A stretch of DNA of 64,000 nucleotides from Escherichia coli (GTDB lineage: Bacteria; Pseudomonadota; Gammaproteobacteria; Enterobacterales; Enterobacteriaceae), in the NCBI RefSeq assembly GCF_044324785.1, contig NZ_CP172127.1, one strand, 5' to 3'. The notes beneath the pieces are model-generated. The model was not told the DNA's origin and did no database searches. It saw only the letters and a list, made by a program, of their open reading frames with translations. Below, piece by piece: positions 546-16,764 of this stretch. Numbering within the stretch: position 1 is the stretch's first letter; every line of letters starts with the position of its first letter. A program made the position numbers and the translations under genes.

Positions 546-1079
546 ATGCGCCTGCTCCCTCTCGTTGCCGCAGCGACAGCTGCATTTCTGGTCGTTGCCT
601 GCAGTTCTCCTACGCCGCCCCGTGGCGTGACCGTAGTGAATAATTTCGATGCTAAACGCTATCTCGGTACCTGGTATGAGATTGCCCGTTTTGATCACCG
701 CTTTGAACGTGGACTGGAAAAAGTCACCGCAACATACAGCCTGCGTGATGACGGCGGCCTGAATGTCATTAATAAAGGCTATAACCCTGACAGAGAAATG
801 TGGCAGCAGAGTGAAGGGAAAGCGTACTTTACCGGCGCACCAACTCGCGCTGCGCTGAAAGTGTCATTCTTTGGTCCTTTCTATGGCGGTTATAACGTTA
901 TTGCACTCGATCGGGAATACCGCCATGCGCTGGTTTGCGGTCCGGACCGCGACTACCTGTGGATACTCTCCCGCACGCCAACCATTTCTGACGAAGTGAA
1001 ACAGGAGATGCTGGCAGTTGCGACCCGGGAAGGGTTTGATGTCAGTAAGTTTATTTGGGTACAGCAACCCGGTAGTTAA
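546..1079 (+). CDS. blc: outer membrane lipoprotein Blc (bacterial lipocalin)
   Basis: 177-aa ORF with lipoprotein signal (LVVACSS); K-12 synteny next to ampC. Confidence 0.9.
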
Positions 1080-1393
1080 TGAGTGCTGAGTTTCAGACCA
1101 ATAATCCCCAATACGATTAACGTCAGACTCGCCAGGCGCATCGGGTTAGCGGACTCGCCGAGCAGCACAATGCCGGTGATGGCCGCGCCGACTGCGCCAA
1201 TACCCGTCCACACGGCATAAGCCGTCCCTACCGGTAGCGATTTCATCGCCCAGGCAAGTAGCGCCATACTGACAATCATCGCCGTCACGGTAATAACACT
1301 TGGCGTCAAACGACTAAAGCCGTGGGTATATTTCAGGCCAACGGCCCATACCACTTCCAGCAGACCAGCAATAACTAAGATAATCCAGGACAT
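1076..1393 (-). CDS. gdx: SMR-family guanidinium exporter Gdx/SugE
   Basis: 105-aa product [26 protein letters not shown]...; the ORF-track N-terminal extension to 1456 is probably not translated; start ATG at 1391-1393. Confidence 0.9.
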
Positions 1394-1409
1394 ATCAGGC
1401 TCCGGAGAA

Positions 1410-1456
1410 TTGGGGCCGTCCCCGGTGAAAAGACGCGTTTGCAGGTCGTCCTGCAA
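1410..1456 (-). ncRNA. guanidine-II (mini-ykkC) riboswitch-like element in the sugE leader
   Basis: two short hairpins each with an ACGR loop (GGGGACGGCCCC and GCAGGACGACCTGC on the minus strand) immediately upstream of the gdx start. Confidence 0.55.
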
Positions 1457-1567
1457 AGCTGATGGTTGAACGGATATTTTGCCAGGTGGCAGAGGAATTT
1501 CAACTATTACCTTTGTGACTATCGCAAAAAAACAAACGGCACGACACAGCTGCCGTACCGTTATTGC

Positions 1568-1714
1568 TTATTGCTGCGCTTTCGTTGCTGCGCCAGAAAT
1601 CGCGTTACCGCCATCAGAAATGTCTTCACCAACGCCACGCGTGGTGTTGCAGGCAGTTAATACTGTTGAAAGCACCAGAACAGAAAAGATCGCTGCAATT
1701 GTCTTCTTCACCAT
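1568..1714 (-). CDS. ecnB: entericidin B lipoprotein
   Basis: 48-aa product [48 protein letters not shown]; below the 60-aa cutoff of the ORF track. Confidence 0.9.
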
Positions 1715-5145: not shown

Positions 5146-5225
5146 GTTATTCCCCATAATCAATGAGCTGGACGCCACTCGCGTCGTCCGTGTCTGAATC
5201 TTATACTAGAAAGATGACCAAAAGA

Positions 5226-5262
5226 AAAACCCCCAGACATTTCTGCCCGGGGGTTTGTTTAT
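5226..5262. terminator. bidirectional rho-independent terminator between groL and yjeI
   Basis: AAAAACCCCCagacatttctgcccGGGGGTTTgtttattt: GC stem flanked by A-run and T-run. Confidence 0.6.
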
Positions 5263-5282
5263 TTCTGCGAGGTGCAGGGCAA

Positions 5283-6941
<1,659 letters not shown>

Positions 6942-15221: not shown

Positions 15222-15327
15222 CAGAAACACAGAAAAGAAGCGATTTGCCGCAATCTTAAGCAGTTGAATCGCTTTTACTGAAATTAGGTTGACGAGATGT
15301 GCATATTACGGTTTAATGCGCCCCGTT

Positions 15328-15403
15328 GCCCGGATAGCTCAGTCGGTAGAGCAGGGGATTGAAAATCCCCGTGTCCTTGGTTCGATTCCGAGTCCGGGCA
15401 CCA
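15328..15403 (+). tRNA. pheU: tRNA-Phe (GAA anticodon)
   Basis: exact 76-nt match to the E. coli tRNA-Phe sequence GCCCGGATAGCTCAGTCGGTAGAGCAGGGGATTGAAAATCCCC...GGGCACCA; K-12 position next to yjdC. Confidence 0.97.
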
Positions 15404-15579
15404 CTTTCACTTCCAGATTCATCTCCCGAACTCCACGAAACTCAAGTATAATCACATCGTTACAAGCAATCTGAACATCCTGAACTCCACCGAACTCTAC
15501 TGAACTCTCTCTCAATCAAGCGTTCATTGGGGGCACCGGTGGGGGCTCATTGTGTTCAGTCAGTTTCAGGAGCCCCCAT

Positions 15580-16764
15580 ATGGCACTTACAGCCAGACAG
15601 GTCGAAACAGCCAGACCTAAAGAAAAAGACTATAAACTCTCTGACGAACGTGGTTTATATCTGCTGGTAAAAACCACGGGTGCCCGCTACTGGCGGCTTA
15701 AATACCGGATAGCAGGAAAAGAGAAAAAACTGGCCCTCGGCGTCTATCCCGACGTCTCCCTTGCTGAAGCCAGAATCAAACGCGACGATGCCCGAAAAAT
15801 TATCTCCGAAGGTGGCGACCCGGGCGAAAAGAAGCGAAAGGAAAAACTCACTCAGAAAATCTCTGCCACCAATACGTTCCATGCCCTTGCTACGGAATGG
15901 CATCAGCATAAATCTTTGTCATGGTCTGAAAGTTACGCCAGAAGCGTACTGGAGGCTCTGGATAAAGATATTTTCCCGTATCTGGGCAAACGAAGCGTTA
16001 CTGATATCCTCCCGCTGGAAATGCTGGAAATTCTGCGCCGCATAGAAAAACGTGGCTCGCTGGAAAAACTTCGTAAGGTGCGTCAATACTGTAATCAGAT
16101 TTTTCGTTATGCCATCGCCACCGGACGAGCCACTGTCAATCCGGCATCTGAACTGACCAGTACGCTGGCGGCGCCAAAAGCTGCACATTTCCCCCACCTG
16201 AGAGCAGATGAGCTCCCTGTTTTTCTCCGGAAGCTCGCTGAATATCATGGCAGTCCTGTTACCCGCATGGCGACAAATCTGCTGCTTCTGACAGGCCTCA
16301 GAACGATTGAACTACGGTCCGCTGAATGGTCAGAAATTGATTTTGATAATGCCCTGTGGACAATCCCTGAAAGCCGCATGAAAATGCGACGTAAACATGT
16401 CGTACCACTGTCACGACAGGCCACTGACATTCTGCTGCAGCTCAAAACTTTCTCCGGACAATACCGGCTGGTTTTCCCGGGACGTTGTGATATCAACAAG
16501 CCAATGAGCGAAGCCAGCATCAATATGGTGCTCAAACGTATCGGTTACGATGGCAGGGCAACCGGTCATGGTTTTCGTCACACCATGAGTACCATTCTGC
16601 ACGAACAGGGCTTTAATTCTGCCTGGATTGAAATGCAGTTAGCTCATGTGGATAAAAATTCCATCAGGGGTACCTATAATCATGCCCTGTATCTCGATGG
16701 TCGCCGTGAAATGATGCAATGGTACGCTGACTACATTGATTCACTTTCCATCCAGGAGAGTTAA
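15580..16764 (+). CDS. P4-type tyrosine integrase of a pheU-inserted genomic island
   Basis: about 394 aa, MALTARQVETARPKEKDYKLSDERGLYLLVKTTGARYWRLKYRIAGKEKKLALGVYP..., with C-terminal catalytic region (HGFRHT...Y); located 177 bp after the tRNA 3' end. Confidence 0.88.
   Translation: MALTARQVETARPKEKDYKLSDERGLYLLVKTTGARYWRLKYRIAGKEKKLALGVYPDVSLAEARIKRDDARKIISEGGDPGEKKRKEKLTQKISATNTFHALATEWHQHKSLSWSESYARSVLEALDKDIFPYLGKRSVTDILPLEMLEILRRIEKRGSLEKLRKVRQYCNQIFRYAIATGRATVNPASELTSTLAAPKAAHFPHLRADELPVFLRKLAEYHGSPVTRMATNLLLLTGLRTIELRSAEWSEIDFDNALWTIPESRMKMRRKHVVPLSRQATDILLQLKTFSGQYRLVFPGRCDINKPMSEASINMVLKRIGYDGRATGHGFRHTMSTILHEQGFNSAWIEMQLAHVDKNSIRGTYNHALYLDGRREMMQWYADYIDSLSIQES

Follow-up and report, generated by a model that had tools for sequence, protein, structure and literature searches.

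The short leader that precedes sugE/gdx on the minus strand of the 64,000-nucleotide Escherichia coli sequence analysed here (the window) raises two questions: is it an RNA regulator of this gene, and which of its segments would pair with the ribosome-binding site (RBS) when the gene is off? An initial annotation, made from the letters of the sequence, had noticed two small stem-loops with ACGR tetraloops just upstream of the gdx start and had read them as a mini-ykkC (guanidine-II) riboswitch. The mini-ykkC motif dates from 2007, when it was described as a pair of tandem hairpins with ACGR loops close to the Shine-Dalgarno (SD) sequence of ykkC-type genes (PMC1950547). It was subsequently found to bind guanidinium and to switch on translation (reviewed in PMC5558903 and PMC12186494).

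Layout and identity of the sugE/gdx leader

The sugE/gdx coding sequence (1076..1393, minus strand; NCBIfam NF008512, RefSeq) encodes an SMR-family guanidinium exporter of 105 amino acids. The protein scores 192.5 bits against the SugE equivalog model NF008512, for which the cut-off is 126, and covers positions 1-104 of 104, while EmrE models give about 43-47 bits and stay under their cut-offs. The nearest solved structures are the SMR chains 6wk5/6wk8 (E = 1.6e-32), compared to ~2e-10 for EmrE. Judged by these similarities, the regulated gene is of the Gdx/SugE subtype of SMR transporters, nearer to Gdx than to EmrE.

The upstream neighbour on the same strand is ecnB (1714..1568). An intrinsic-terminator-like hairpin at the end of ecnB (1562..1535, minus strand), in which a 12-bp stem is followed by the U-run TGTTTTTTTG, delimits the transcription unit of sugE/gdx on its 5′ side. 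Between this hairpin and the leader lies a candidate σ70 promoter (1503..1476, minus strand), composed of TTGAAA (1503..1498), a 16-nt spacer and TG-CAAAAT (1483..1476). It is no more than a match to the consensus (9 of 12 positions, with the TG extension): the region contains 1 such site, and 1.1 are expected from shuffled sequences. The promoter core is kept in K-12 and in a plasmid copy of the locus that is described below. Transcription is predicted from this site to start near 1469, about 12 nt before the first hairpin.

The element itself, 1457..1411 on the minus strand, reads UUUGCAGGACGACCUGCAAA-CGCGUCUUUUCACC-GGGGACGGCCCC-A. Its first hairpin, P1 (core 1457..1438), has 8 bp and the sequence UUUGCAGG-ACGA-CCUGCAAA with the loop at 1449..1446. 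P1 can be extended to 1459..1435 by the pairs G1459-C1435 and C1458-G1436 across a bulged C1437, pairs that show GC to AU changes among orthologs, and it is also present in the minimum free energy (MFE) fold. A 14-nt linker (1437..1424, CGCGUCUUUUCACC) leads to the second hairpin, P2 (1423..1412), which is a 4-bp stem, GGGG-ACGG-CCCC, with the loop at 1419..1416. An 8-nt spacer, AAUUCUCC, located between 1412 and 1403, separates P2 from the SD sequence GGAG (1403..1400). The latter was read directly from the sequence, and the same GGAG is labelled as the SD in Fig. 1 of PMC13064478. The 6-nt SD-AUG spacer, CCUGAU, is followed by the start codon AUG at 1393..1391.

The initial annotation had proposed an Rfam covariance scan, and had named the lack of a hit above threshold as evidence against its reading. 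The scan returned a match to RF01068 (Guanidine-II) at 1457..1411 of the minus strand with 49.3 bits (E = 8.9e-8), covering the full model (1-48) with no truncation and exceeding the gathering score of 32 bits by 17 bits. The element had thus been placed correctly at 1410-1456, apart from a shift of one nucleotide relative to the match at 1411-1457. The twin ACGR hairpins are indeed on the minus strand upstream of the gdx start, in the 5′→3′ order ACGA, then ACGG. A scan of the whole window reproduced the match as the sole riboswitch at the gathering threshold in 64 kb, and found no guanidine-I, -III or -IV riboswitch in the window. These other classes share with guanidine-II the ligand and the class of genes that they control (Gdx/SugE exporters and guanidine carboxylase operons; PMC12186494), but their folds are unrelated to it, and classes I and IV act on transcription. 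The pattern GGACGRCC-N(7-37)-GGACGRCC has a single occurrence in the 64 kb and is absent from all 100 dinucleotide-preserving shuffles, which excludes a chance origin.

The details of the element conform to the published description of the class. Both P1 and P2 carry the ACGR tetraloop by which the tandem hairpins are recognised (PMC1950547, PMC5558903), and two G-C pairs close each tetraloop (GG-ACGA-CC and GG-ACGG-CC), giving the 16 conserved nucleotides of PMC5558903. The 14-nt linker falls within the 7-40 nt range of guanidine-II linkers (PMC5558903). P2 ends 8 nt before GGAG in the leader of a SugE/Gdx gene, and 90% of mini-ykkC elements lie within 33 nt of an SD (PMC1950547).

Furthermore, the E. 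coli sugE leader has itself been described as a guanidine-II riboswitch with ACGA in P1 and ACGG in P2 (PMC9300104, PMC9094411, PMC13064478). Its aptamer was studied with the native linker by NMR and SAXS (PMC9300104) and by smFRET combined with simulations (PMC9094411), both of which report guanidinium binding and loop-loop kissing of this sequence in vitro. The E. coli P1 hairpin has also been crystallised as a dimer (PDB 5NDI, cited in PMC9094411). In vivo, guanidinium induces E. coli gdx (PMC13064478). The window contains the same element as this E. coli representative, with the same P1 and P2 tetraloops, linker-length class and gene.

Considering the Rfam match, the SugE/Gdx gene downstream, the presence of the element at all 20 orthologous loci in Enterobacterales (see below) and the literature on the same leader, the mini-ykkC reading of the initial annotation is well supported. 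The minus-strand leader of sugE/gdx is the chromosomal guanidine-II riboswitch of E. coli, an identification that we regard as practically certain and that no observation contradicts. That it works as a translational ON switch is very highly probable, and the joint reading, in which a guanidine-II riboswitch acts as a translational ON switch and which includes the OFF state proposed below, is highly probable. The element is thus a known one that has been correctly identified; of value beyond this are a gap in its annotation and a refined, testable model of its expression platform.

Conservation of the element among gdx leaders

A scan with the Gdx protein, taking one genome per species, gave 80 loci ranging from Enterobacterales to Chloroflexi. 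The twin GGACGRCC motif is found just 5′ of the start in 53 of the 80 gdx leaders, the window included, and always on the gene strand. At the 20 orthologous loci in Enterobacterales, RF01068 matches in every case at the same position with 38-49 bits.

Covariation was examined in an ungapped alignment of both hairpins from 52 distinct leaders that were selected by the GGACGRCC motif. The tetraloop and its closing G-C columns are invariant in 52/52 of these motif-selected leaders. Standard pairs occupy 88% of the cells across the 52 leaders versus 66.8% in shuffles, and double-sided changes are seen at 10 of the 14 pairs (6 of 8 in the P1 core and 4 of 6 in P2). The covariation score of 0.554 compares with 0.168 for shuffled alignments, none of which reaches this value in 500 trials, and with 0.06-0.23 for slid controls (maximum 0.225). 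Within Enterobacterales, P1 covaries freely, and P2 is almost invariant and hence uninformative: the window and 19 of its 20 orthologs share GGGG/CCCC, and the remaining ortholog (L021) has CUCC. The covariation of P2 comes from other proteobacteria.

The initial annotation had also remarked that the leader is merged into an extended open reading frame (ORF), and this ORF exists: it begins with an in-frame TTG (1456) and is 126 codons long in terms of its product (126 aa, 1456..1076). It is on account of this ORF that one might dispense with an RNA element altogether, and read the leader as the coding N-terminus of a 126-aa SugE or its hairpins as products of chance. Such a reading is hardly conceivable given the absence of the twin pattern from all 100 shuffles and the RNA-like covariation of the stems. 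Moreover, the distance from P2 to AUG differs among orthologs by non-multiples of three (offsets −23 to −38), and because these indels break the frame, no reading frame is conserved across the leader. With the SugE equivalog model fully covered by the 105-aa form, the frame-breaking indels led us to reject a coding N-terminal extension.

Guanidine-II control is widespread in this gene family and does not extend to all of its members. For 19 of 20 loci with motif-less gdx homologues, no Rfam riboswitch match at the gathering threshold was found within 1.5 kb, and riboswitch control is therefore common, not universal, among gdx homologues.

Two variations in the arrangement were observed in the survey. 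Eight Mesorhizobium loci (L052, L054, L057, L063, L066, L067, L070 and L075, about positions 1390-1500) have a 35-65-nt insert between P2 and the SD, which often contains a hairpin of its own (e.g. GCAUC...GAUGC). With this insert, 54-110 nt separate the aptamer and the start codon, an unusually large distance for the guanidine-II class. In addition, extra twin GGACGRCC motifs are located away from the gdx start in L069 (551-587) and in L032 (3039-3082), of which the L032 copy is under the Rfam gathering score; these extra motifs probably control neighbouring genes.

Proposed pairing of the ribosome-binding site in the OFF state

The guanidine-II class is described as exclusively translational (PMC10351892), and translational control is also reported in PMC5558903. 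The published OFF states leave P1 and P2 folded in both states and use strands outside the hairpins to mask the RBS, strands that are parted by kissing of the loops. The schemes drawn for E. coli show a putative linker anti-SD that pairs with GGAG (PMC9300104, PMC9094411). In P. aeruginosa, deep mutagenesis gave no covariation for pairing of a linker anti-SD, and the platform there is a P0b helix formed by the 5′ tail and the SD-AUG spacer, backed by double-mutant covariation (PMC10351892). The P. aeruginosa riboswitch has in common with the window the architecture of the aptamer, the ligand, the translational ON logic and the position of the SD just 3′ of P2, and in its OFF state the two tails, 5′ and 3′, form a P0 helix while both hairpins stay intact (PMC10351892). 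By contrast, in the E. coli-type leader the complementarity of the tails is weak and unconserved, and we infer that it is P2 to which the RBS is complementary instead.

The predicted fold points in the same direction. In the MFE structure of the window leader, P1 is kept and P2 is replaced by a helix between P2 and the RBS, in which G1403/G1402 pair with C1412/C1413, G1400, C1399 and C1398 pair with C1415, G1416 and G1417, and G1391 to U1387 pair with C1418 to G1422. The same exchange is predicted for most Enterobacteriaceae orthologs. The energy of P1 combined with this alternative helix is −25.0 kcal/mol, versus −20.5 kcal/mol for P1 combined with P2, and −19.7 kcal/mol if a P0b-like AUCAG:CUGAU helix is added to the latter. 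The modelled OFF state of the E. coli leader would thus be the helix formed by 1422..1412 and a 3′ arm at 1403..1387, to which, in this specific form, we give an even chance. The broader proposition, that P2 itself serves as the anti-RBS element in E. coli-type and, more generally, gdx-associated guanidine-II riboswitches, is suggested by the sequence comparisons that follow and is put forward tentatively, at slightly less than even probability.

The duplex of P2 (14 nt) with its own RBS has an energy of −15.2 kcal/mol and ranks first among the 42 natural RBSs of the genome stretch (mean −7.3, sd 2.7). The linker forms a duplex of just −3.5 kcal/mol with its own RBS in both the window and K-12 alleles, which for the window ranks 41st of 42, and the 5′ tail one of −4.6 kcal/mol (z = +0.1). 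Compared to shuffled RBSs, the mean z over the 53 leaders, kinship among them being ignored, amounts to −1.03 for P2 and to +0.14 for both the linker and the 5′ tail. The mean P2:RBS energy of the 53 leaders, likewise taken irrespective of kinship, is −14.1 kcal/mol versus −11.3 kcal/mol for dinucleotide shuffles, with 0 of 40 shuffled sets reaching the natural value. The RBS regions of motif-less gdx genes give a mean P2:RBS energy of −8.1 kcal/mol.

These figures bear directly on the published-type OFF states. Pairing of the linker with the RBS receives some support from K-12, the linker of which contains CCUCU that could pair weakly with GGAG, and a P0b-like helix from a perfect 5-bp complement in the window, AUCAG (1463..1459) with CUGAU (1398..1394), which the plasmid/Citrobacter-type copy (L008) retains, one of the pairs there being G-U. 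Nevertheless, probes for the linker and the 5′ tail display no excess complementarity to the RBS in the 53 leaders (z from +0.14 to −0.24), and all four bases occur at the relevant linker position in close relatives. The P0b-like helix does not lower the energy of the fold, and its strands are unconserved in other Citrobacter/Enterobacter loci. We therefore rejected the linker as an anti-SD, it being without excess complementarity to the RBS, as well as a P. aeruginosa-style P0b helix, the five pairs of which are not stabilising, conserved or enriched. For this leader, an OFF state of either published type is in our judgement rather unlikely.

The complementarity between P2 and the RBS is reached by different means in different lineages. 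In Bradyrhizobium, GGUCGUC, located between the SD and the AUG, is the exact complement of GACGACC, whereas in Massilia the sequence complementary to P2 is UUGUC, and in two Rhizobiaceae MAG loci (L053 and L059) GUCGU at the start codon provides the complementarity. A further trace is seen in the coding sequence, where NCC is the second codon of 39 of the 52 genes with the riboswitch and of 6 of the 19 without it (Fisher p = 0.0017, uncorrected for phylogeny), while C at other third positions has frequencies of 0.41 and 0.35, respectively. This hints at an RNA-level constraint on positions +4..+6 of gdx. The amino acid encoded by codon 2 varies (Ser, Ala, Thr, Pro) despite NCC. Among Enterobacteriaceae, the last of the four P2 loop bases combines with the base that follows GGAG as G:C in 10 leaders, G:U in 1 and A:U in 2, a pattern that represents few independent events and fails outside this family (Serratia, Budvicia).

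The sole in vivo deletion reported for this leader also distinguishes between the models. Removal of 20 bp, mRNA-sense CCGGGGACGGCCCCAAUUCU, results in constitutive gdx expression, as read by RNA abundance with n=1 (PMC13064478). The deleted segment maps to 1425..1406 in the window, which means that P2 and the 8-nt spacer are lost, and that the linker, the 5′ tail, the SD, both P0b-like strands and a local hairpin between the SD and codon 2 are kept. Derepression is what P2 as the anti-RBS element would predict, and not what the other models predict, because the linker, 5′ tail, P0b-like strands and SD:codon-2 hairpin all remain.

Some of the calculations do not favour the P2:RBS helix. In the nearest-neighbour model, enforcing P1 and P2 shifts the probability that the SD is unpaired only from 0.26 to 0.27, since the local SD:codon-2 hairpin (UCCGGAGC/GUCCUGGA) then forms. 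As the partition-function accessibility of the SD barely changes between the free and the P1+P2-enforced ensembles, it was dropped as a read-out of switching in both directions. The cost of opening the RBS is 8.1 kcal/mol for the wild type, 7.3 kcal/mol with P1 and P2 enforced and 6.2 kcal/mol for the deletion, a spread of only 0.8-1.9 kcal/mol. The complementarity between P2 and the RBS could also be coincidental, as both GGGGAC and AUG-UCC-UGG are under constraints of another kind. Moreover, the member of the class that has been studied best, that of P. aeruginosa, relies on another platform, the P0b helix (PMC10351892).

A different type of control altogether would result if P1 and the U-rich linker acted as an intrinsic terminator or attenuator, i.e. 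on transcription. A terminator scan flags P1 (1457..1438) together with CGCGTCTTTT, and the phenotype of the deletion was, after all, read as RNA abundance (PMC13064478). Yet the U-run is interrupted, begins 6 nt past the stem and is unconserved in orthologs (e.g. CGCAUCUCACACC in L002), the background of the scan is high (3 hits found versus 1.3 expected), and mRNA stabilisation coupled to translation is also expected to raise RNA levels. In view of the geometry of the U-tract and its lack of conservation, and with the class described as exclusively translational, P1 was rejected as an intrinsic terminator; we consider transcriptional control of this kind very improbable.

The sequence of events, with P2 as the proposed anti-RBS element, would be as follows. 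Each ACGR tetraloop (ACGA in P1 and ACGG in P2) binds one guanidinium ion, and the ligand-loaded loops kiss via C-G pairs, as reported in vitro for this sequence, which locks both hairpins. Ribosomes would then use the GGAG SD (1403..1400) and the AUG (1393..1391), so that Gdx would be made and guanidinium exported. Without ligand, the weak 4-bp P2 hairpin would open, and its 5′ strand, loop and 3′ strand (1422..1412) would pair with the SD, the SD-AUG spacer, the start codon and codon 2 (1403..1387). Kissing driven by guanidinium would win P2 back from the RBS.

Neither the linker anti-SD of the E. coli schemes nor the P0b tail helix of P. aeruginosa corresponds to an OFF state of this kind. 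If it is correct, one aptamer class would be combined with at least two distinct designs of the expression platform. Sequence comparison thus offers a specific and cheaply testable alternative for the OFF state, which fits the one deletion reported in vivo.

Genomic context, alleles and annotation

Over positions 1000-1800 (801 nt), the window shows 100% identity to E. coli strain N3, and nearly all of 5,426 complete E. coli genomes match it there at 95-99% identity. Its genes follow the standard order of E. coli, ampC-blc-sugE-ecnB-ecnA-efp-epmB. The convergent genes sugE (minus strand) and blc (plus strand) share 4 nt at their 3′ ends (1076-1079). The window is identical to the N3 record over its first 6,692 bases and diverges from 6693 onwards, with an indel between 6693 and ~12,600 shifting the coordinates relative to N3 (the start of cutA is displaced). 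Because of the divergence beyond 6692, the window derives from a close relative of N3, not from N3 itself.

No riboswitch or other regulatory feature is annotated at 1411-1457 in the two RefSeq records that were inspected (strain N3 and a K-12 MG1655 assembly; RefSeq/PGAP). The initial annotation had expected the extended ORF to hide the leader from protein-based annotation. The ORF is real, as described above, but RefSeq nonetheless calls the 105-aa form with the ATG start at 1393, and the riboswitch is simply unannotated. With such feature-less records, analyses that start from annotation will overlook a validated regulator, and the gene under its control is also carried on resistance plasmids.

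In an alignment of 161 nt, the window leader differs from that of the E. coli K-12 representative only at one position of the promoter spacer and at position 1434 of the linker, which is G here and C in K-12, and P1, P2, the 16 conserved nucleotides, the SD and the start region are all without differences. Position 1434 is U in the plasmid copy and A or U in other genera. The K-12 base at this position belongs to CCUCU, the most SD-complementary stretch of the linker. Of the 5,711 matching records, only 112 share 99% identity or more with the window leader, so that G1434 appears to be a minority allele.

The plasmid copy belongs to a mobile, Citrobacter-derived blaCMY-blc-sugE module, in which sugE is carried beside a class C β-lactamase gene. 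In the copy examined (L083, 2480-2645), both hairpins are identical to those of the window, as are the SD and the start region; the linker is 1 nt shorter and the P2-SD spacer is AUUGUUCU instead of AAUUCUCC. The leader matches 301 places on plasmids of E. coli, at ~84% identity. The sugE gene of such resistance islands is presumably still regulated by guanidine, which agrees with PMC12186494.

Elsewhere in the window, the minus-strand region 5389..5218 gave sub-threshold Rfam matches (ctRNA_p42d with 23 bits, His_leader and Rev39 5′UTR) that we rejected as chance matches to one G+C-rich hairpin followed by a U-run. This hairpin is located directly downstream of groL and resembles a groSL terminator. 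Finally, the region 15327-15759 contains a tRNA-Phe gene (68 bits) and, about 200 nt further on, a frameshifted and N-terminally truncated tyrosine-recombinase pseudogene; the two may be the remnant of an island integrated at the phe-tRNA site.
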